From an uncultured virus (IMG/VR IMGVR_UViG_3300028920_001041) (lineage: Duplodnaviria > Heunggongvirae > Uroviricota > Caudoviricetes), in the IMG/VR virus record IMGVR_UViG_3300028920_001041: a DNA stretch of 33,994 nucleotides. One strand, 5' to 3'. Below are positions 2,341-31,902 of the stretch, one piece after another. The first letter of the stretch is position 1. Every line of letters starts with the position of its first letter. The position numbers and the translations under genes are program-made. The notes beneath the pieces are model-generated. The model was not told where the DNA came from, searched no databases, and saw only the letters and a program-made list of their open reading frames with translations.

Positions 2341-4167
2341 ATGGGAACACAAATTCAAGGAATGGGATCTGTAACTGTTGATGATGTATACGAGAAGATA
2401 AAAGCTGGAGAAAGTCTTGATAAAAAGATAGCATATTCTCATCCAGAAAAAACGAAAAATAAATCAGTCCGAATTTCAATAGGTAGAGTGTGGTTTAATG
2501 AACTTTTACCAGATGAATGGCCACTCGTTAATGAACCTATTAATAATGATAAAATGACTACTATTATAAAACAGTTTGTTAAAAAATATGACTCAGAAAA
2601 AACTGCAGACTTAATTGGTGATATTAAACGAGAAGCATTTAAACTTGCCACATTGAGTCCAAGTTCTTTTAACATTGATACATTTATTCCACCAGACGAA
2701 TGGTTACAATTGAAATCCGAGTTCCAAAAGAAATGGACTAATACTCCAAAAGATGAAATAGATATTAAAGTATTCACAAAAGAAGCTGATAAATTAAGTA
2801 AAGTGTTAGTTAACCATATGGATAAATCTGGATTTAAAATTCAAGATGTAATGAATAGTGGTTCGAGAGGAAATGCTATACAAGATTGGAAAACTCTACT
2901 TGTTTCTAAAGGATACGTTCTTGATATTGAAGGGAACATTAGAGGTCCTATTATTGAAGGGCAATCAGATGGATACACTCAAGAAAACTATTATCATGCA
3001 GCATCTCAATCTCGACGAACTCTTTATTATAAGTCAACAATGACAGCTAAACCAGGATATCTATCTAGAAAAGTAACAATGTCAAACGCAAATGTTGTTG
3101 TTGATTCTACTAGAAATGATTGTCGTACAAGAAAATATTTCGAACTATCTGTTGATTCTAATAACTCTAAACTTCTTTTAAATAGAAACCATATTGTTAA
3201 AGGAGAAATTAAAAGAATAAGAGATGTAGCAGATATTGAAGGTCAAACGATTAAGTTAAGATCTCCTATATATTGTAGGGCAAAAAAAGGAATATGCCCT
3301 GTTTGTTATGGTGGGCATTATAAAGACTTAGGAACAACCAATATTGGTATTCTTGCTGGTGGTGCCATTAATATGGTTGCTATTAACAGTATGATGAAGC
3401 TAAAACATAAAGCTAGTCAAATCGAAATTATTGATGTCAATTTTAAGAAACTTATTAAATCATCAAGTGAAGATATATCTATAATTAATAAACTAATTGA
3501 AATTAGAGAAAAAGAAATTATTGCGAAAACAAACTGTACAATATTATTAGATAAAAGTGATTATGATGAATCAACATTAATAGATACTGGTGAAGAAATT
3601 TTTATACCTGGCATATTCAATCTATACGTTGGTGACATATCTAAAAACAAATTTATATCTCTCCCATTTAACTTTCAAGTACATTTAAATAAACCAGAAG
3701 ATTATGTTGTTGATGGTAAAACTATTATATTAAGATATACTCAAGGTGAGAAGATATTAAGTCAAGATTATTACACAAAACAAACTGAACCGAGTGTAAT
3801 AGATAGAATATTAGGTGGAGCTTTAAAATATATTAATAGCCCTGAAGCGTTAATATCTGCAGCTCACGATCAACTACCATCCCTTGACTTAGTACATATT
3901 GAATTAGTAGTAAGTAATATGTTCCGGCTTAAAGATGATTTAACTATTCCTTGTAGATTGTCTAACTACAAAGATTTTGAAATTGTTGGTATCAAAAAGC
4001 TTCCGCATATTAATAGTTGGTTAACTGGCTTAAGTTTCGAAGATCCCAATAAGGCTATTAAATTAGCATTACTTAATTCAAGGGACAATGATATGAACCC
4101 AATCGAGAAGATTCTCCTCGAGAAATTCTATGATCAAAAGGAGAGAAATCAGAGGGATGAACCGTAA
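2341..4167 (+). CDS. rpoC: DNA-directed RNA polymerase beta' subunit, C-terminal half (split gene)
   Basis: IGRVWFNELLP, SGSRGN, bridge helix TAKPGYLSRKV, Zn site LRSPIYC..ICPVCYG, HIELVVSNM, SWLTGLSFE. No catalytic DxDGD motif in this ORF. Confidence 0.93.
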   Translation: MGTQIQGMGSVTVDDVYEKIKAGESLDKKIAYSHPEKTKNKSVRISIGRVWFNELLPDEWPLVNEPINNDKMTTIIKQFVKKYDSEKTADLIGDIKREAFKLATLSPSSFNIDTFIPPDEWLQLKSEFQKKWTNTPKDEIDIKVFTKEADKLSKVLVNHMDKSGFKIQDVMNSGSRGNAIQDWKTLLVSKGYVLDIEGNIRGPIIEGQSDGYTQENYYHAASQSRRTLYYKSTMTAKPGYLSRKVTMSNANVVVDSTRNDCRTRKYFELSVDSNNSKLLLNRNHIVKGEIKRIRDVADIEGQTIKLRSPIYCRAKKGICPVCYGGHYKDLGTTNIGILAGGAINMVAINSMMKLKHKASQIEIIDVNFKKLIKSSSEDISIINKLIEIREKEIIAKTNCTILLDKSDYDESTLIDTGEEIFIPGIFNLYVGDISKNKFISLPFNFQVHLNKPEDYVVDGKTIILRYTQGEKILSQDYYTKQTEPSVIDRILGGALKYINSPEALISAAHDQLPSLDLVHIELVVSNMFRLKDDLTIPCRLSNYKDFEIVGIKKLPHINSWLTGLSFEDPNKAIKLALLNSRDNDMNPIEKILLEKFYDQKERNQRDEP

Positions 4168-9348: not shown

Positions 9349-9378
9349 ATAAGCAATCAAATCTCCTCTTTCGTTAAA

Positions 9379-9436
9379 TTTAATATTCAACCATTTCATA
9401 TAGAAATTTTATATTCAACAAAAACATATAGAAATA
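9379..9436 (+). promoter_or_regulatory. Tandem pair of putative class B promoters
   Basis: TTTAATATTCAA-N6-CATATAGAAAT (core 9397) and TTTTATATTCAA-N6-CATATAGAAATA (core 9425), 28 bp apart. Confidence 0.65.
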
Positions 9437-13305: not shown

Positions 13306-13473
13306 ATGAGTGAATTTACTTGTTCGGAATGTGGTGGAGAAATACAACAAATTGGTAAACTCTTAAAATGCACCAAGTGTAAAAGAGAGAAAACCATAAC
13401 ACCAAAAGAACAACAATTCAATGAAGTTGATATGAATGATAGAACAAAAAATCTTGATATTCTAATGGAGTAA
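13306..13473 (+). CDS. 55-aa zinc-ribbon protein (absent from the ORF track)
   Basis: GGAGG RBS; MSEFTCSECGGEIQQIGKLLKCTKCKREK..., two CxxC pairs. Confidence 0.8.
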   Translation: MSEFTCSECGGEIQQIGKLLKCTKCKREKTITPKEQQFNEVDMNDRTKNLDILME

Positions 13474-13687: not shown

Positions 13688-13933
13688 ATGGATGATTTAA
13701 TAAGTGAAGCTATTCCTGGATTAACAGAAGCTTCAAAGAAAAGAATTGGTTATAGAAAAATATTGTTAAAATATATTAGAGAAAATATTGAATATTACCC
13801 AGATGATCACACAAAAAAATTATTAATAAAAAGAATTAAAAGAGGGCAATTAAGCAATTTATCGGATAGTGATTTAAGTGTTCATGCTCAAATAATATCG
13901 GATGTAAAGGAGGGACTAAAACCAAATGAGTAA
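13688..13933 (+). CDS. Small hypothetical protein
   Basis: GGAG RBS; overlaps the queC start. Confidence 0.7.
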   Translation: MDDLISEAIPGLTEASKKRIGYRKILLKYIRENIEYYPDDHTKKLLIKRIKRGQLSNLSDSDLSVHAQIISDVKEGLKPNE

Positions 13934-14633
13934 AGGAACTGTTGTAATGGCGCTGAGTGGAGGAATGGACTCAGCAACTGTACTAGATAAATTAGCATTC
14001 GAAGGATTTAGTGTTGTATGTATAGGATTCACATATGGATCTAAACATAACGAATTTGAGAATGCTGCGGCATTAGCATTAGCTAAACATTATAAAGTAC
14101 ATTACAAATTAATTGATCTTACTGTAGTATTCGATGGATTTAAATCTAATCTTCTTAAGGATGGGGGAGACATACCAGAAGGACATTATGAACAAGATAA
14201 TATGTCTCTGACTGTTGTTCCTGGAAGAAATACAATTTTTGCTAGTATTCTTCTTGGTGTCGCAGAATCTATCGGTGCTTCAAAGATTGCACTAGGTGTA
14301 CATCAAGGAGATCATGCTATTTATCCAGACTGTAGAATTGGATACATTAAAGCACTAGACACACTATTATGGTTAGCATCAGATGAAAGAGTATCAGTGA
14401 TTACACCTTTTCTACATACAACCAAAATTGGTATTCTTGATTTCGGTCTTAGAAATTCTACACCTTATCATTTGACAAGAACATGCTATAAAGATCAAGA
14501 ATTAAGTTGTGGAGTCTGTGGAAGTTGTAACGAAAGAATTGAAGCATTCGCCACACATGGGAAAAAAGATCCTATTAAATATGAGAATGTTCCTGATTGG
14601 AATACTCTATATAATAAATTCCGAAAAGCTTAG
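13926..14633 (+). CDS. queC: 7-cyano-7-deazaguanine synthase
   Basis: SGGMDS PP-loop, VPGRNTIF, YPDCR, TCY..CGVCGSC. Confidence 0.96.
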   Translation: MSKGTVVMALSGGMDSATVLDKLAFEGFSVVCIGFTYGSKHNEFENAAALALAKHYKVHYKLIDLTVVFDGFKSNLLKDGGDIPEGHYEQDNMSLTVVPGRNTIFASILLGVAESIGASKIALGVHQGDHAIYPDCRIGYIKALDTLLWLASDERVSVITPFLHTTKIGILDFGLRNSTPYHLTRTCYKDQELSCGVCGSCNERIEAFATHGKKDPIKYENVPDWNTLYNKFRKA

Positions 14634-14736
14634 AAAAGGAGTACTTCTAGATTTATCACCATGGCAAGAACCTATCACATATGCATCAGTTGATGGACAA
14701 CAAACACAAATTGCAGCAGTTTAAAAGGATAATGAT

Positions 14737-15183
14737 ATGTATTCAGTGAACAAACAATTTGAATTTGAAGCGAGTCATAAATTACTACTTGATTATGGAT
14801 CACCTTGCACAAACATTCATGGTCATTCATATAAAGTAGATATACAACTATTTTCGGACACATTAGATAAGAATGGGATGGTGATTGATTTCACCAAAAT
14901 GAAGAGAGTTAAAGATTGGGTAATGAATTATTGGGATCATTCAGTGATTATATCTGAGAAAGATAAAGATCTAGAATTATACCAAAATATGGTAAATGTT
15001 AAAGTATTTGAATTCCCTCACAGTAATGTAACTGCTGAATTGATGGCAGAACATATATGCAAATTGACTGAAGACCAAATTGCTCCAAGATTAAGAGAGC
15101 GTCTTAAAAAGATAAGAATTATTGTTTGGGAAACAACAAATAATTGTGCAACATTCGAGAAGGAATACGAGATTCAAGCTTAA
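14737..15183 (+). CDS. queD: 6-carboxy-5,6,7,8-tetrahydropterin synthase
   Basis: FEASH, CTNIHGHSY, GMVIDF, TAE, VWET. Confidence 0.95.
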   Translation: MYSVNKQFEFEASHKLLLDYGSPCTNIHGHSYKVDIQLFSDTLDKNGMVIDFTKMKRVKDWVMNYWDHSVIISEKDKDLELYQNMVNVKVFEFPHSNVTAELMAEHICKLTEDQIAPRLRERLKKIRIIVWETTNNCATFEKEYEIQA

Positions 15184-15186
15184 CGT

Positions 15187-15221
15187 AAAATAGGTCGGGC
15201 CTATCTGCTCGACCTATTTTT
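15187..15221 (+). terminator. Intrinsic terminator, possibly bidirectional
   Basis: AAAATAGGTCGGGC-ctatct-GCTCGACCTATTTTT. Confidence 0.85.
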
Positions 15222-15226
15222 ACCGA

Positions 15227-15256
15227 TTTTATATTCAATTATTTTATATAGAAATA
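15227..15256 (+). promoter_or_regulatory. Putative class B promoter of the ubiquitin-like operon
   Basis: TTTTATATTCAA-N6-TATATAGAAATA. Confidence 0.65.
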
Positions 15257-15313
15257 ATTATGATAGGAACCGGTCCTATTTATTTTAATTTATTTTGAAA
15301 GGAGACTTATGCC

Positions 15314-15712
15314 ATGGCAGTAAAAAACAAGTGCCCGAATTGTAACAAACAGACGGAACAACAAAAGAAGGGCAAATCAACATCGGGTGCTCAGCGTTGG
15401 AAATGTAACGAATGCGGTAAACAGTACACCGAAGGAGCTACAAAGAAACCAACGCCCAAAAAAGCAGCGCCTAAGAAAAAGGCACCTGCTAGAAAGCCCG
15501 CGACCAAGAAAGTTGCTTCTAATAAGCAAACCACTATCAAAGTCAATAATAACACTATTAAAACGGTTAAAGGTGACCTCTCACCGGACGAAGCATTTGA
15601 ACTTGCGTCAGATTATTTTCGAGAGATTACTAAAACCTCTGTTAAAACGACTCATGATAATGATGGAAACGTTGTACACGCATTCCAAGTATCTACCGGT
15701 CGCAAAGGCTAA
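15314..15712 (+). CDS. Zn ribbon + Lys/Ala/Pro linker + prokaryotic ubiquitin-like domain (Prok_Ub / PRTRC protein C-like)
   Basis: CPNC..CNEC ribbon; KKPTPKKAAPKKKAPARKPATKK; C-terminal LSPDEAFELASDYFREITK...HAFQVSTGRKG-stop matches the Prok_Ub pattern ending in GxKG. Confidence 0.8.
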   Translation: MAVKNKCPNCNKQTEQQKKGKSTSGAQRWKCNECGKQYTEGATKKPTPKKAAPKKKAPARKPATKKVASNKQTTIKVNNNTIKTVKGDLSPDEAFELASDYFREITKTSVKTTHDNDGNVVHAFQVSTGRKG

Positions 15713-15722
15713 TATTATTATT

Positions 15723-15773
15723 TTACTCTAACCGGAAAGGACTATTCCTTTTCGGTTAGAGTAATATCTTTTT
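15723..15773 (+). terminator. Long hairpin or terminator after the Ubl gene
   Basis: TTACTCTAACCGGAAAGGA-ctat-TCCTTTTCGGTTAGAGTAA, then TATCTTTTT. Confidence 0.7.
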
Positions 15774-15778
15774 GAGAG

Positions 15779-16639
15779 GTGAATATGTTAATAACAGAGA
15801 AACTTTCAATCTCGAACACTAAGAGATTCTTTCCTAACCAAAAATTGTTTGAGGTGCTATATTACGCTTTTCTTAAAGAAATCAACTTTTGCGAAAGGAG
15901 AGGTAAAAGATTATTTGATAATCATAAAGATCAAATGACTTATTCTTTGAGAGAAGCAGGTAGAACAAAATTTACTGGTTGTAGAATTATAATGTTGTTT
16001 AATATAATATTTGATTTTATGGATTGGAAACCATATGTCAAAACATTTAACTATGTGCTAATTGCAAGATTCATAATAAAGAAATGTAGAGCCGAATGGG
16101 ACCAATTTCGATATACTAGAAAGAAAACAATATTTGATACTAATGATCACAAAATAAGAGTATTATATGGATTGTGGGAGAAAGGGTTATATTTTCAAGA
16201 TTATGAACATACACCAAAAGCTATTAAAAAATTAATGAGTCTAGAGTTGTATGGACGATACTTCCTTCAAAAGTTATTTGATAGAGATTTTCGTGAAGGG
16301 AAGATGCAATACTTTTCAACAAGTAAAAAAGAAGGAGAACCATATTATCAGAGATACTATTATCGACATGGAGAAGTAATAGATTCACATGATGATATAC
16401 ACATCACTGAGGAAGATTATAACACAGTATTTCCTCCACAAGAAGAATATGCATATTTTAATATCAATGTTGATATAACTGGTGCATCTGGAATAGTAAA
16501 CACGTCAGACACATCAGCAACCACATCTGGGTCTACCAATTATGAGCAATACGAGCCTACTTCTGGAGATTCAAATACTATGTATTACAATGGAACAACA
16601 GGAGGTACAGTTACATGGAACATAACGAGAGACTCCTAG
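15779..16639 (+). CDS. Hypothetical protein in the Ubl operon
   Basis: 286-aa ORF, aromatic/basic core and Ser/Thr/Gly-rich tail; start may be the ATG at 15785. Confidence 0.75.
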   Translation: MNMLITEKLSISNTKRFFPNQKLFEVLYYAFLKEINFCERRGKRLFDNHKDQMTYSLREAGRTKFTGCRIIMLFNIIFDFMDWKPYVKTFNYVLIARFIIKKCRAEWDQFRYTRKKTIFDTNDHKIRVLYGLWEKGLYFQDYEHTPKAIKKLMSLELYGRYFLQKLFDRDFREGKMQYFSTSKKEGEPYYQRYYYRHGEVIDSHDDIHITEEDYNTVFPPQEEYAYFNINVDITGASGIVNTSDTSATTSGSTNYEQYEPTSGDSNTMYYNGTTGGTVTWNITRDS

Positions 16640-16977
16640 TAATCGATTTCGATAAACTTGAAACTAATAAAGGAGGAGTACTTAATATAAATGAAGAAAT
16701 TTCATTACGATCCGCGATAATGAATCCAAGAGACCCTATAACAAATGATAACTATAATTTTAGAATGGATAGGTTCAAGGCATTAAAAGCATTACAACGA
16801 CATGTATTTCGGCAAGAAATATCGTTATTCTTCGATCTAATAAATCAATCAGATGATTATACAGATTCAAATCAATACTATGGACCTATAACAAGATATC
16901 GTAAAAGGAGGGGAAGACCATCATGTATAACAGGGTCACAAAGTCTACAATTAGTCTTGAACTTACAAGAAGAGTAA
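16615..16977 (+). CDS. Hypothetical protein in the Ubl operon
   Basis: GGAGGT RBS; overlaps both neighbours. Confidence 0.65.
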   Translation: MEHNERLLVIDFDKLETNKGGVLNINEEISLRSAIMNPRDPITNDNYNFRMDRFKALKALQRHVFRQEISLFFDLINQSDDYTDSNQYYGPITRYRKRRGRPSCITGSQSLQLVLNLQEE

Positions 16978-17840
16978 ATACTGATAACACCCCTTATTAT
17001 GCGATTTTATATCTATTAGCAGATCGAAATAAGATATTAATTGAGAATCCAGATAAGGGAACATGTCGACAGATAGGATTAACAGAAGCAAATAAGTATC
17101 TTAAACTAAACAAAATTAAAACAGAATGGTTTCAAAATATTGATGGGTCATATCTTAGAATTGTAGATAATAACGTAGATCATATTCTGCCTATTACTCG
17201 TGAACTTCAATTAGTGAATGTTAAATTCAATTATAAGCTATCGAACCATCGTGATTTCAACAGAATTCGTCATGTAAAAGAGAAAAATTTTAAACTTGTT
17301 AGAAGACGTTCTTCTACCGGAGATACAACAGAAACTGTAACAATTGATGCCTTCCTTCCTGTATGGCCTATGTGGGTTAGAGTTCGTCGGGAAATTAATG
17401 ATCCAGAAGCATCGTATAAATTACGAACTGTTTATATGAAATATGAAGACCAATTTTATAGGTTTCCATATGGGAATGTAAGCGGAAACGATCAAGTATG
17501 CACTGGTGCTGCAAATAATGGAATCTTCAAAACTGCTGAAGAGCTTTGGATTAACTGGTTTACTACTCAATTCAATAGGGATTATAAACTTAATCTTAAG
17601 GCTAATAAATTCCATTTCAAATTATCTCTAAACGGACGTTCTGGATCTGAAGACATTGCAATTGAGCCTACATTTGACCTTAATGAAATATCATTAAAAC
17701 TCTATACTAAGAGTTATAAAAATCTAAGTTTAATTGATATGTTCTACTATTTAACTAATGTTGAAGAGTTTGATAATCTTGAAATGGATAAACTCTTTAT
17801 TAAATTACCACAGAAACCTTGGGAACCTAAAAAGATATAA
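16923..17840 (+). CDS. Prokaryotic E2 family D-like conjugating enzyme (PRTRC protein B-like)
   Basis: FYRFPYGNVSGNDQVCTG with the predicted catalytic Cys, then WFTTQFNRD; adjacent to JAB and E1. Confidence 0.8.
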   Translation: MYNRVTKSTISLELTRRVNTDNTPYYAILYLLADRNKILIENPDKGTCRQIGLTEANKYLKLNKIKTEWFQNIDGSYLRIVDNNVDHILPITRELQLVNVKFNYKLSNHRDFNRIRHVKEKNFKLVRRRSSTGDTTETVTIDAFLPVWPMWVRVRREINDPEASYKLRTVYMKYEDQFYRFPYGNVSGNDQVCTGAANNGIFKTAEELWINWFTTQFNRDYKLNLKANKFHFKLSLNGRSGSEDIAIEPTFDLNEISLKLYTKSYKNLSLIDMFYYLTNVEEFDNLEMDKLFIKLPQKPWEPKKI

Positions 17841-17853
17841 TGGAGGATATATT

Positions 17854-18888
17854 ATGATGGATCTAAATGAAATTAATGAACACTCAATTATTAATGTCTT
17901 ATTTGATCAAGAAGATAAGCCTATTGATGCTAATCAACTTGATTATCTAAACCTTGTATTCACAAGGGATGGAATATTCCTCGTCCAAAAAAATAGATTC
18001 GGTATTTCATTCGAAAGAATTGAACAAGCATACAAGAACAGAGCACTTCGTAGATATAGATTTAAATGGGCTACTGAATCGTTTCTTCCGAAACCTAATA
18101 AATCTATGTTTGAAGATATTCTCGAGTGTTTTAAATACATCGTAGGTCAAACAAACGATGAGCTTTTAATTATTATATACTATGACACAGTTGAAAAGAA
18201 ACACATTATGGATATTGTTAAAGTTCAACTTATATCCGGTGGCGCTGTTAAATATGCATATAATAAAGCATACGAGATGGAAGATAGATATATTAAATAT
18301 CTCGAAATCCATAGTCACAATACTATGAGTGCGGGGTTTAGTGGTACTGATAACAATGATGAGAAGAAATACCTGTACTTTTGTGGTGTCATTGGTAAGA
18401 TTAATGAACATAGTAATATTTATTCTGTCGATCAAGCATTTAGAATTTGGACCGGTAAAGAATTTCGTGTAATCCAACCCTGGGAAGTATTCGATTCATA
18501 TATGAAAACAACCCCTATTAGAGATGAGCATAAAAATCAAATGGATGAAATTTTAAGAATATCAAAAGCTGCATCAGAGTTAAAGAAATCTATGACACCT
18601 GGGGTAGCAGGTCAACAATTTCTTGGAGCTGGGTTTCATAAACTTTCGAACGGTAGAGAAATCGAAGTCCTTGAAGACAACGTGTTTCCTAAAATACCTA
18701 ATCTGTTTGAGACATTCTTTTCTCCGGAAGAATTAGCGGAGCTTGATGACGATGAACTTGATGAAACAGATATTATATGGGACAACTACAACGCTGACGA
18801 GAAAGAGATGCTTAAAGAATTAATAGAGGCTGATAATAATGGAAGAGGAGTAGCTAATGTCTTTAATCGACCATTACAGAAGGATTAA
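17854..18888 (+). CDS. JAB/MPN+ metallopeptidase (PRTRC protein A-like) with an acidic tail
   Basis: NDELLIII and EIHSHNTMSAGFSGTDNNDE (HxH..S..D). GGAGG RBS supports a start at 17854 rather than 17758. Confidence 0.9.
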   Translation: MMDLNEINEHSIINVLFDQEDKPIDANQLDYLNLVFTRDGIFLVQKNRFGISFERIEQAYKNRALRRYRFKWATESFLPKPNKSMFEDILECFKYIVGQTNDELLIIIYYDTVEKKHIMDIVKVQLISGGAVKYAYNKAYEMEDRYIKYLEIHSHNTMSAGFSGTDNNDEKKYLYFCGVIGKINEHSNIYSVDQAFRIWTGKEFRVIQPWEVFDSYMKTTPIRDEHKNQMDEILRISKAASELKKSMTPGVAGQQFLGAGFHKLSNGREIEVLEDNVFPKIPNLFETFFSPEELAELDDDELDETDIIWDNYNADEKEMLKELIEADNNGRGVANVFNRPLQKD

Positions 18889-19666
18889 TGTATTTCAATT
18901 TGGTGTAGGAGGAACCGGCTCTTGGTTGGTTTCTCCTATGTGTAAATTTCTCAATAATATGACTAGAAGATTTGGTGCTGAAATGTTATTAACGAACTAC
19001 CTTCTATTTGATGATGATATTGTATCAGAAGAAAATATTATTCGACAGAATTTTGATAATCATGATATCGGTAGATCAAAGGTTATGGCTCTTATTCGTA
19101 AATATGCTCATGTATATGAAAAAATGGTAGGAATACGAGAAAGAGTTAATACAAAAGCAAAATTAGATAAAATATTTAAACACGGTAAATATAAATCTGT
19201 TTCTATGGAGTATGCTGCTAATTTCGTATTCGGATGTAGCGACAATAACAAAACAAGAAGATGTCTATTTAATTATTTTACTAAATATCTTAAATTCAAA
19301 TCGCCTGTCATATATTTCGATAGTGGTAATGATGTTCATCATGGTCAAATTGTGACTACCGCATTTGAAGAGGTCGAAGAATATGAAGGATTAAGTCCTG
19401 AATTTCTAAGAGGTCTTAAATTAATGAATTTCAGAAATGGTAAAAGATTCGAACAACCAAAGTTTTTAAAGATGTTCCCTGCTAAAAATGATAGAATGGA
19501 ACAAGAAAACGAGACATGTGCTTTCTTCGGAGATCAAACTCAATCTGTTAATATGCTCGCTGCAAACATGTTATTTATAAACTTTCAGCAAGCAATATTA
19601 CAAGCGATGTTACCTCCACCAGTGATTAATTTTAATAACGCTGGATACAGTACATTTGAACTTTAA
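18857..19666 (+). CDS. ThiF/E1-like ubiquitin-activating enzyme
   Basis: GVGGTGSW, DDDIVSEENIIRQNF, IGRSKV, GCSDNNKTR, YFDSGN, ETCA (candidate catalytic Cys). Confidence 0.92.
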   Translation: MSLIDHYRRINVFQFGVGGTGSWLVSPMCKFLNNMTRRFGAEMLLTNYLLFDDDIVSEENIIRQNFDNHDIGRSKVMALIRKYAHVYEKMVGIRERVNTKAKLDKIFKHGKYKSVSMEYAANFVFGCSDNNKTRRCLFNYFTKYLKFKSPVIYFDSGNDVHHGQIVTTAFEEVEEYEGLSPEFLRGLKLMNFRNGKRFEQPKFLKMFPAKNDRMEQENETCAFFGDQTQSVNMLAANMLFINFQQAILQAMLPPPVINFNNAGYSTFEL

Positions 19667-19691
19667 TATTCTATATATTCATATAGAAATC
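19662..19691 (+). promoter_or_regulatory. Putative class B promoter
   Basis: TTTAATATTCTA-N6-CATATAGAAATC. Confidence 0.6.
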
Positions 19692-19713
19692 GTAAATGTA
19701 AGGAGGTAATACT

Positions 19714-19944
19714 ATGCCATTAGTAACAGAATTATTCGCTTTTATTGCAGAAGAAGAACCGGGGGAAGAGGGCGTAATGGGCGTAATGGTTAATGGAACC
19801 TGGACACCGCTAATTGGTGCAGATATGAATAGAATACATTCATTAAAACCGATTGCGGATCAAATATCAGAAGCCTCAAGGCTACCTTATAAACTATTAC
19901 ACTTTAAACTGGAGGGTGAAATCACAGATCTAACAAAGATCTAA
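19714..19944 (+). CDS. Small hypothetical phage protein with its own transcription unit
   Basis: AAGGAGGT RBS; flanked by the promoter motif and a terminator. Confidence 0.85.
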   Translation: MPLVTELFAFIAEEEPGEEGVMGVMVNGTWTPLIGADMNRIHSLKPIADQISEASRLPYKLLHFKLEGEITDLTKI

Positions 19945-19953
19945 CTTCAATAT

Positions 19954-19998
19954 GAAAATTGGGGGAGCCAAGCCTCCCCCGATCTTCAAAATATTTTT
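19954..19998 (+). terminator. Intrinsic terminator
   Basis: ATTGGGGGAG-ccaagc-CTCCCCCGAT hairpin. Confidence 0.7.
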
Positions 19999-20077
19999 AT
20001 AATTTATCGGTCATAGTACTGGTGTTTTCCATGCATTTGTAACTACTTTAATTTATTAGAGAAAAACTAAGGAAATT

Positions 20078-22171: not shown

Positions 22172-22651
22172 ATGCGTATTAAAAAAATAGATATACCCCC
22201 TGGTATTAAAGAATACAGAGGCAATAAGAAAATGTTAAAAAAAATTGAACTCTATAAAATCAACAGACGTAAATTTAAAGATAATAAAATCGCAGTCAAA
22301 GAAACTGGATTATCAGATCGATCTATTAGACGATTAAATCTTATATTTAAACATGGATCAAAATTAACTATTGATAATGTTTTAGCAGGCATAATAACAT
22401 TAGCACATGCAGAAAAACATATTAGATCGACATTAAATCAAATTAAAAAAAGAGCTGAGTACATGAAAAAAAACGGAAACGGTATCAAATTAGTGCACGA
22501 TAAGACTGGGAATAAATTACCAGAACAATATTCTAAATACAAGCATGAATTCTGGAATCAAATAAGATTAGCAAAAATGAATAAGTATGAATACATTAGT
22601 AAAGATACAATCTCCGCTGACTTGGATAACATGATGGCATTAATAGATTAA
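22172..22651 (+). CDS. Basic helix-turn-helix protein (ParB-associated type HTH)
   Basis: IAVKETGLSDRSIRRLNLIFKHG...VLAGIITLAHA. Confidence 0.6.
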   Translation: MRIKKIDIPPGIKEYRGNKKMLKKIELYKINRRKFKDNKIAVKETGLSDRSIRRLNLIFKHGSKLTIDNVLAGIITLAHAEKHIRSTLNQIKKRAEYMKKNGNGIKLVHDKTGNKLPEQYSKYKHEFWNQIRLAKMNKYEYISKDTISADLDNMMALID

Positions 22652-31813: not shown

Positions 31814-31872
31814 GTTGATCAATTAACACTGTTTTAACCTACTAAAATCATTAAAGATTTTACTGGCTATAA

Positions 31873-31902
31873 TTTAATATTTAACTTTTTTATATAGAAA
31901 TA
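31873..31902 (+). promoter_or_regulatory. Putative class B promoter of the topoisomerase B subunit
   Basis: TTTAATATTTAA-N6-TATATAGAAATA. Confidence 0.6.

Follow-up and report, generated by a model that had tools for sequence, protein, structure and literature searches.

Background

PRTRC systems are ParB-related/ThiF-related cassettes of plasmids and integrative and conjugative elements. The present analysis concerns a gene at positions 15314..15712 of a stretch of 33,994 nucleotides (nt) from an uncultured virus of the Caudoviricetes (IMG/VR record IMGVR_UViG_3300028920_001041); the whole stretch is referred to below as the window. The gene encodes a protein in which a zinc ribbon and a basic linker precede a ubiquitin-like (Ubl) domain, and it may be the modifier of a diverged conjugation cassette of the PRTRC type that is carried by the phage.

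Row 6d of the operons described by Iyer, Burroughs and Aravind in 2006 combines a small Gly-terminated Ubl, a JAB peptidase that bears a domain at its N-terminus, an E1 and an E2-like protein (PMC1779556, excerpted text), and this row would correspond to PRTRC. No experimental study of such PRTRC-type ('6D') Ubl cassettes was found in the literature. In the excerpted text of Chambers et al., Bil Ubls have N-terminal domains that are predicted to phase-separate or dimerise, and mislocalisation or aggregation of the target is suggested (PMC10557695). The corresponding excerpts of Ye et al. state that Bub Ubls bear 'a variety of N-terminal domains', and that operon families besides CBASS, Bil and Bub are not yet characterised (PMC11601596). 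On the strength of these passages, bacterial Ubls that bear a payload are already a published concept. The literature search found no PRTRC-type, zinc-ribbon/polycationic or phage-encoded payload Ubl, and the supplements of these papers may list more architectures.

Results and discussion

Architecture of the modifier

The gene is read here as the Ubl modifier of a diverged, phage-borne PRTRC-type ('6D'-type) conjugation cassette, which would leave an N-terminal payload on its conjugates; we assign to this reading a probability of about 0.55. The architecture of the protein, the conservation of its family, purifying selection, synteny, the JAB and E1 motifs and an RNA hairpin were computed in this work. 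The gene and its parts are as follows.

15314..15712, + strand: open reading frame (ORF) of the Ubl protein, 132 amino acids (aa), ATG start, TAA stop
15300..15304, + strand: Shine-Dalgarno sequence AGGAG, 9 nt before the Ubl ATG, read from the sequence
15314..15433, + strand: zinc ribbon, aa 1-40, basic, four-Cys, of the IS1 InsA / IS1595 type, with an invariant KKG turn
15434..15523, + strand: linker, aa 41-70, disordered and Lys/Pro/Ala-rich (PKKA-like)
15524..15712, + strand: beta-grasp (Ubl) domain, aa 71-132 and the stop codon, PRTRC-C-like, ending in G-R-K-G

The GGAG of the Shine-Dalgarno sequence is kept among the aligned upstream regions of related loci. The ribbon reads CPNC...KKGK...SGAQRWKCNECGK, with both Cys knuckles present (C7-x2-C10 ... 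K18-K19-G20 ... QRW-x-C31-x2-C34). It matches the NCBIfam model IS1_IS1595_Zn (NF050000) over aa 7-40 with 30.4 bits (cut-off 28, E 4.3e-7), and the Pfam model Zn_ribbon_InsA (PF03811) over aa 3-34 with 25.6 bits, slightly under the cut-off of 26.1 (E 1e-5). The linker, GATKKPTPKKAAPKKKAPARKPATKKVASN, contains no acidic residue; when it is cut as aa 41-71 its composition is 12 K+R, 0 D+E, 5 P and 7 A. Residues 1-70 together have a net charge of +18.

In the AlphaFold2 (AF2) model, the ribbon forms four short strands and the linker is disordered, with predicted local distance difference test (pLDDT) values of 44-51. The Ubl domain (aa 72-126) has the succession strand-strand-helix-strand-strand (E72-77, E80-86, H91-99, E107-114, E120-126) at a pLDDT of about 76-82 per 10-residue block. 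A floppy tail follows aa 126, and the protein ends in STGRKG directly before the TAA codon. The 132-aa protein has no internal Met able to yield a bare Ubl. Because attachment would be through the C-terminus and the N-terminal half precedes the beta-grasp, the ribbon and linker would stay on every conjugate.

An earlier note, made from the sequence without database searches, had proposed these three parts, with a PRTRC-C-type Ubl and a free terminal Gly, and had suggested structure prediction as a check. The ORF reading, the matches to hidden Markov models (HMMs) and the AF2 model bear out the architecture, the protein does end in TGRKG-stop, and the model gives the ribbon strands, the disordered linker and a beta-beta-alpha-beta-beta grasp fold.

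Conservation of the family and selection

A word-based search found seven close homologues (126-136 aa, 74-100% identity), each of which has this three-part structure. With the C-terminal 62 residues as the profile, HMMER was run exhaustively over 1.84 billion cluster representatives (50%-identity level). Of its 36 matches at E ≤ 0.001, 25 are plausible relatives; they align over the full length of the domain, which lies at their very C-terminus. Eleven long proteins (346-1792 aa) from this search, each matching in 4-20 short stretches, were dropped as low-complexity, with their sequences unread. An N-terminal extension is present in 23 of the 25 relatives, which are 117-152 aa in total with 55-91 aa ahead of the Ubl domain; the remaining two are a 95-aa protein with a basic linker only and an 84-aa protein that is apparently truncated. 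The same protein as in the window is also present on a 306-kb contig. A phage collection gave no nucleotide match for positions 13900-20000 and no tblastn match for the 132-aa protein, and none of 135 pattern matches in IMG/VR was confirmed.

The family alignment (n = 29) comprises six close relatives and 23 representatives, with P0006 and the fragment P0038 excluded. Its invariant columns are K18, K19, T73, N78, E104, F124 and K131, and the near-invariant ones are G20, Q27, K60, I75, V77, F102 and G129. A four-Cys ribbon with a match to IS1_IS1595_Zn is found in 21/29 members. Seven of the 29 have a Cys-less ribbon, in which the KKG turn is retained and a new conserved motif, GAExxVDQxTG, is present. 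The net charge of the ribbon segment lies between +3 and +10 in all 29. The linker varies in length across the family and also in net charge, from -6 to +12: it is at least +8 in 14/29, +3 to +5 in 7/29, and +1 or lower in 8/29. The C-terminus is K-G in 20 members, K-G followed by 1-4 residues in four, as in Ubl precursors, and K-S in five.

For the window and three loci that are 77% identical, dN/dS is 0.07-0.10 in the ribbon (computable for four of six pairs), 0.13-0.30 in the linker and 0.04-0.10 in the Ubl domain; these values are rough, because dS is about 1-2 and thus near saturation. All three parts of the protein are under purifying selection. Therefore, from the values for the ribbon and linker, the N-terminal half is translated and selected.

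The possibility raised in the earlier note that the N-terminal part might be untranslated can thus be set aside, since the conserved extension and the low dN/dS mark it as translated and constrained. In the survey of homologue architectures that the note called for, the extension is general among the 25 relatives (23/25), and PRTRC protein C and the Ubls of phages Arash and ME3 (see below) are bare. Its 'histone-H1-like tail' did not survive as a family trait, and is a lineage-specific composition of a variable linker. The model hist_H1_lk_Burk (NF038053) gives a weak compositional match (17.3 bits, cut-off 80) and is matched by 3/29 relatives. Membership in a histone H1-like family was rejected, as the score is far under the cut-off and neither linker length nor linker charge is conserved.

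Relation of the C-terminal domain to PRTRC protein C

The model of PRTRC protein C (TIGR03738) aligns with aa 76-132 over profile positions 10-66 of 66, with 14.9 bits against a cut-off of 45.95 (E 0.021), and 10/29 relatives match it at E ≤ 0.1, the best at 0.0068. When the column-trimmed family profile was compared by hhalign with four short PRTRC-C-type proteins, the result was a probability of 74% (E 2.9e-5) over 44 columns reaching the C-terminus. The Ubl profile gave a probability of 62% over 56 columns with the Arash Ubl alone and 58% with ME3_139. Compared with 27 proteins of PRTRC-type cassettes, it had as its top three Arash_Ubl66, ME3_139 and Bur_C, all of them Ubls. In the ESM Atlas model, aa 65-132 aligned to a 'PRTRC system protein C' cluster (100% PF14454), with a template modelling (TM) score of 0.55 by that row.

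The plasmid PRTRC C proteins end in VGTKG (Sphingopyxis, 68 aa) and AGAKG followed by AHA (Burkholderia, 72 aa). The terminal motif G-x-K-G is defined here from these two plasmid proteins and not from a published definition. The listed sphingomonad homologues of PRTRC C (n = 120) are 68-91 aa long. The statement in the earlier note that PRTRC C proteins are usually just the small Ubl holds for the two plasmids (68 and 72 aa) and for phages Arash and ME3 (66 and 63 aa).

When the PDB was searched by sequence with the family query (A3), the only matches were look-alikes of C2H2 zinc-finger linkers (G-x-K-P-Y-x-C-x-x-C-G-K-x-F), aligned in many short stretches; they were rejected as motif mimicry. 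Taken together, the results indicate that the C-terminal domain is a diverged relative of PRTRC protein C, and not a member by curated cut-offs. The family is real and conserved, and its identity is reasonably well explained.

The cassette and its synteny

The gene heads a set of six, whose other members are listed below together with their counterparts in related loci. L001 has the same sequence as the window, and L002 is too short for the whole set and holds the Ubl gene and X1.

15779..16639, + strand: X1, 286 aa, in the slot of PRTRC protein F; orthologues in L002-L005, 24-65% identity
16615..16977, + strand: X2, 120 aa; orthologues in L003-L005
16923..17840, + strand: X3, 305 aa, probable E2 (Prok-E2_D / PRTRC protein B-like), with Cys193
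17854..18888, + strand: JAB/JAMM peptidase (PRTRC protein A-like), matched by Prok-JAB (E 2.6e-5) and PRTRC_A (E 5.3e-9), in each case under the cut-off
18857..19666, + strand: ThiF-type E1 adenylyltransferase (PRTRC ThiF-like); PF00899 33.4 bits (cut-off 28.1)

The order Ubl-X1-X2-X3-JAB-E1 is found in the window, L003, L004 and L005, that is, in 4/4 loci long enough. In L005 it is still kept although the Ubl is only 43% identical and of the Cys-less form. It parallels the order C-F-B-A-ThiF on two plasmids.

In the E1, GVGGxGS, DDD, RQNF and DNNKTRR are invariant in the four orthologues, the model PRTRC_ThiF gives 66 bits (E 3e-18, cut-off 144.75), and hhalign with the plasmid PRTRC ThiF gives 98%. 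With PADLOC, the E1 was the sole gene matched, weakly, to CBASS E1-E2 models. A complex prediction for two E1 chains with Ubl aa 71-132 gave scores of 0.50, 0.22 and 0.29, and thus a median of 0.29 against a mark of 0.32, which counts neither for nor against the pairing. In the peptidase, Glu103 and HSHx7Sx2D line up with PRTRC A and with gp247c of phage Arash, the JAMM motif is intact, and hhalign with PRTRC A gives 75%. The long JAB ORF (17758..18888) overlaps X3 by 83 nt, and X2 and X3 overlap by 55 nt as listed. Because the orthologues align only from residue 33, translation of the JAB probably begins with the ATG at 17854, which is M33 in the long ORF.

X3 is probably an E2-like protein of the Prok-E2_D type. 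The columns FYRFPYGNV...D.VCTG, which include Cys193, are invariant across the orthologues. Three of four orthologues have sub-threshold matches to PF14460 (E 0.0015-0.036, profile positions 83-135), a model that the PRTRC B proteins of two plasmids match at 1e-29 and 3e-50. An Atlas feature search with X3 placed 22/30 matches in one family set, and the top two clusters, both scoring 0.93, have 100% and 50% viral members and 14-20% Prok-E2_D members. All Atlas structure rows for X3 had TM scores of 0.30 or less. X1 and X2 have no family match in Pfam, NCBIfam, PHROGs or PADLOC, and hhalign comparisons of thin profiles of X1, X2 and X3 with PRTRC B, F and E were not significant.

Two side observations concern neighbouring genes. 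PRTRC protein E, encoded directly before protein C on the plasmids (L006 4614-5042, L010 3663-4115), consists of a globular N-terminal part and an Ala/Pro/Ser/Lys-rich low-complexity tail; the phage layout of a module, a low-complexity linker and a Ubl resembles an E-C fusion in arrangement, although the ribbon showed no similarity to E in sequence. Just after the E1 gene lies an acidic ORF of 76 aa (19714-19944) without a family match, preceded by a copy of the promoter-like motif described below. It is 75% identical in L003 and L004 and absent from L005, where a primase-like gene directly follows the E1 gene.

Short Ubls in cultured phages

Salmonella phage Arash (OQ632216.1, L012) has at 107-307 an unannotated ORF of 66 aa that ends in TGTKG and resembles a PRTRC-C-type Ubl. 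It overlaps the annotated gp251c in another frame and heads gp250c-gp246c, in the same order as the window cassette. The window JAB matches Arash gp247c at E 3e-12, and the window E1 matches gp246c at 9e-9 and ME3_130 at 2e-13. In the excerpted report on the phage, the label 'structural protein' is given to gp248c and gp246c on the basis of a particle proteome in which many enzymes are present too (PMC10585845), so that it shows expression and not a role in the virion.

In Acinetobacter phage vB_AbaM_ME3 (L011; 1840-2031, 3742-4176 and 6827-7879), ME3_139 (63 aa, ending in DGNKAA) is likely a bare Ubl, and is encoded close to a ThiF and to a protein annotated as 'PRTRC system protein A'. The ME3 peptidase may be truncated or split, because the annotated protein A stops at the first JAMM His, before a tRNA-Met gene. 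The Arash and ME3 records had no match to PF14454, and the ThiF neighbourhoods of Paenibacillus, Stanieria and Bacillus phage WH1 contained no small protein with G-x-K-G. Since the Ubls of Arash, ME3 and the sphingomonads are short and bare, the ribbon and linker appear to be a derived trait of the phage clade represented by the window.

Genome context and expression signals

The surroundings of the Ubl gene include the following features.

13926-14633, + strand: QueC (PF06508, E 1e-51), upstream of the Ubl gene
14737-15183, + strand: QueD/PTPS (PF01242, E 1e-28), directly upstream of the Ubl gene
15224..15255, + strand: promoter-like bipartite motif CGATTTTATATTCAA-N5-TTTTATATAGAAAT, upstream of the Ubl gene
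15723..15774, + strand: terminator-like 19-bp hairpin with a T run, directly after the Ubl gene; -29.1 kcal/mol, z -6.06
31870-31901, 9376-9407 and 19659-19690, and a weaker 999-1030, + strand: related copies of the motif, intergenic

The 32-nt promoter-like motif is nearly invariant, and its core invariant, in 5/5 aligned upstream regions including that of L005. The full pattern occurs once in the window and in 0/100 shuffles. Its bipartite AT-rich core, TTTAATATTCAA-N5-TT(T/C)ATATAGAAAT, recurs in other intergenic regions of the + strand, and copies precede the gene for the large subunit of topoisomerase II, ORF 9507 and ORF 19714. The motif probably marks a class of promoters that this phage group also uses for replication genes. 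A second terminator-like hairpin lies behind QueD (about 15190-15222), upstream of the promoter-like motif.

Hairpins with a T run equivalent to that at 15723..15774 are found in the same place in L002 (~1657-1715), L003 (~2375-2432), L004 (~3202-3258) and L005 (2572-2640), with z between -4.7 and -6.0. The stem sequence of L005 differs, so that it is the structure rather than the sequence that is kept. With its promoter-like motif and strong terminator, the Ubl gene would form its own transcription unit, as befits a stoichiometric reagent. The Ubl may be made in excess over its enzymes, which would depend on read-through of the terminator.

The gene content of the window is jumbo-phage-like, with a tail fibre, pieces of a multisubunit RNA polymerase, a primase, topoisomerase II, a clamp loader, QueC and QueD. 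QueC and QueD, which function in 7-deazaguanine precursor synthesis, also immediately precede the Ubl gene in the distant L005 (796-1985); this adjacency may reflect a functional link or plain genome collinearity. Near the cassette, an ORF of 55 aa (13306-13473) has two CxxC pairs (CSECGG...CTKCK) and only weak treble-clef/rubredoxin-like matches, and may encode a second small zinc-binding protein.

Proposed mechanism and points against it

In the proposed mechanism, the ThiF-type E1 would adenylate the terminal Gly132 of the G-R-K-G tail. X3, the E2-like protein, would then accept the Ubl on its conserved Cys193 and transfer it to lysines of targets. The JAMM peptidase would trim the 1-4 extra C-terminal residues of some homologues and could also reverse conjugation. 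The N-terminal 70 residues would be the payload, most likely a handle that binds nucleic acid or another polyanion, and would relocate or cluster the tagged protein. Conjugation itself, the binding to DNA, the targets and any advantage for the phage are inferred. With a tail that ends in K-G, lysines that carry the modifier should retain one Gly (+57 Da) after digestion with trypsin, instead of the usual Gly-Gly.

Several results weigh against this reading. The models for the Ubl, the E2, the JAB and the PRTRC-specific E1 all score under their family-level HMM cut-offs, and the window protein has no match to PF14454 (Prok_Ub) at E ≤ 0.01. The hhalign comparison of the family query (A3) with the single Sphingopyxis PRTRC C covered five columns only, and 5/29 relatives end in K-S. 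In the VIA wide structure search with the beta-grasp, the best Z was 6.9 (the N-domain of FdhD, a sulfurtransferase), within the tool's common range; the list consists mostly of beta-grasp proteins, with SUMO, UBX, PB1 and GB1 at Z 3.5-4.5 only. Foldseek against the PDB with the full model gave no match at E ≤ 0.001 (E ≥ 2.7e-3), and its best rows were the C-terminal region of LeuRS and protein L/G B1. The AF2 model of X3 (7-sequence alignment, mean pLDDT 47) is unusable, and an E2 fold could not be modelled from it. Finally, PRTRC ParB, E and a recognisable F had no match among the neighbours scanned; there was only a weak ParB-like PHROG match (22172-22651, E 7e-4), and the rest of the ~300-kb genome lies outside the scan.

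Nature of the payload and alternative readings

The nearest families of the ribbon are the DNA-binding N-termini of IS1/IS1595/IS256 transposases, and the InsA zinc finger is required, together with a helix-turn-helix (HTH), for binding to DNA specific for the inverted repeats (IR) (PMC12428005, excerpted text). An IS1-family transposase was itself rejected as the identity of the protein, as the model transpos_IS1 gives 33.3 bits against a cut-off of 100 and matches the N-terminus only. Three features of the family count against DNA binding: no HTH follows the ribbon, the Cys ligands are gone in 7/29 relatives, and the linker charge is not conserved, being +1 or lower in 8/29 and -6 in one. 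The tethering of targets to DNA that the earlier note proposed is weakened by the Cys-less ribbons and the non-basic linkers.

The alternative that fares best keeps the conjugated Ubl and gives the ribbon and linker another task, as a module for protein interaction, target selection (an E3-like adaptor), multimerisation or phase separation, or as a lysine-rich acceptor of chains. It is a possible though less likely explanation. The Cys-less ribbons, in which KKG is kept and GAExxVDQxTG gained, suggest a conserved protein surface and not a zinc-dependent reader of DNA; the spread of linker charge likewise favours a payload that does not bind DNA, and Ubls with N-terminal domains are in print for Bil and Bub (PMC10557695, PMC11601596, excerpted texts). 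A payload of this kind is harder to reconcile with a ribbon that is net basic in 29/29 members and has its closest families among DNA-binding transposase N-termini, and with a strongly polycationic linker in 14/29.

A bolder proposal, which we hold to be unlikely, is that jumbo phages employ the Ubl as a 'DNA anchor' of a covalent kind. DNA would be bound by the ribbon and tail, and the E1 and E2 would link the C-terminus to lysines of targets or of other modifier tails, thereby pinning host or phage proteins covalently on DNA or building a cross-linked, chromatin-like coat during the replication phase; the plasmid pair of E and C would be the unfused counterpart. If this were true, it would be the first functional clue to the uncharacterised PRTRC systems.

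An improbable reading is that the protein is never conjugated and is a small, abundant DNA-binding protein, nucleoid-associated or regulatory, whose beta-grasp oligomerises and which is encoded beside the JAB and E1 or is their substrate. Such a protein could well have its own promoter-like motif and terminator, which means that it is not strictly co-transcribed with the enzymes, and a basic composition resembling that of H1-like proteins, and its homology to PRTRC C is under every curated cut-off. It would leave unaccounted for the exposed and invariant G-x-K-[GS] with which the proteins end, save for occasional short extensions, the head position in a PRTRC-ordered cassette that is kept at 43% identity, and the short PRTRC-C-like Ubls in the same slot in Arash and ME3.

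The least probable reading is a sulfur carrier of the ThiS/MoaD kind, for which the E1 would make a C-terminal acyl-adenylate and thiocarboxylate for a nucleobase or DNA modification tied to QueC/QueD, with the ribbon and tail delivering it to nucleic acid; to our knowledge, 7-deazaguanine synthesis needs no sulfur carrier. The QueC-QueD pair immediately upstream in the window and in L005, the sets of E1, JAB and small beta-grasp protein that are known from sulfur-transfer operons as well (Iyer et al. 2006, PMC1779556, excerpted text) and FdhD as the best structural neighbour (Z 6.9) are outweighed by a tail of G-x-K-G or G-x-K-S and not the GG of ThiS/MoaD, by the absence of rhodanese, cysteine desulfurase and ThiS/MoaD matches among the scanned proteins (Pfam/NCBIfam; 18 + 15 neighbours), by the E2-like protein with an invariant Cys in the cassette, and by the terminator and promoter-like motif that separate the Ubl gene from QueD.

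Comparison with known systems

The reading of the gene as the modifier of a PRTRC-type cassette invites comparison with four groups of described proteins. The window protein shares with PRTRC protein C (TIGR03738; PF14454) a beta-beta-alpha-beta-beta grasp of about 60 aa and a C-terminal G-x-K-G, sometimes with a few extra residues, and its gene likewise precedes, in the same order, the genes for an E2_D-type protein, a JAB and a ThiF-type E1. In contrast to the canonical PRTRC C, which is a bare protein of 68-72 aa, it has 132 aa with a ribbon and linker of 70 aa, its Ubl similarity is under the curated cut-offs, and it is encoded in a jumbo-phage-like genome.

With the N-terminal zinc domain of IS1 InsA, IS1595 and IS256 (PF03811, NF050000, NF048018) the protein shares the pattern CxxC-(x)n-K-x-G-x4-G-x-QR[WY]-x-C-x2-C. 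In the window protein, neither an HTH nor a DDE domain follows the ribbon, and the chain continues with the linker and beta-grasp; moreover, all four Cys are replaced in seven relatives of the phage family. The Ubls of Arash and ME3 are likewise phage-borne and head cassettes with a JAB and a ThiF-type E1, but they are without the N-terminal ribbon and linker, and these phages are unrelated to the window (no nucleotide or tblastn match).

Bil (BilA) and Bub (BubA) embody the same concept, that is, a conjugatable beta-grasp with an N-terminal module that may mislocalise, aggregate or oligomerise the target. Their chemistry differs: the Bil E1 is a tandem IAD-AAD protein and Bub works via oxyesters, whereas the window cassette has a single-domain ThiF-type E1 and an E2_D-like protein. 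The excerpted descriptions of Bil and Bub mention no zinc ribbon with a polycationic tail. A payload-bearing phage modifier would provide a concrete idea of function, namely the addition of a charged, probably nucleic-acid-binding module to targets, and the cassette is a compact six-gene set for reconstitution. Finally, Bil and Bub are host defence operons, whereas the window cassette is phage-encoded, so that here it would be the phage, and not the host, that wields Ubl conjugation.

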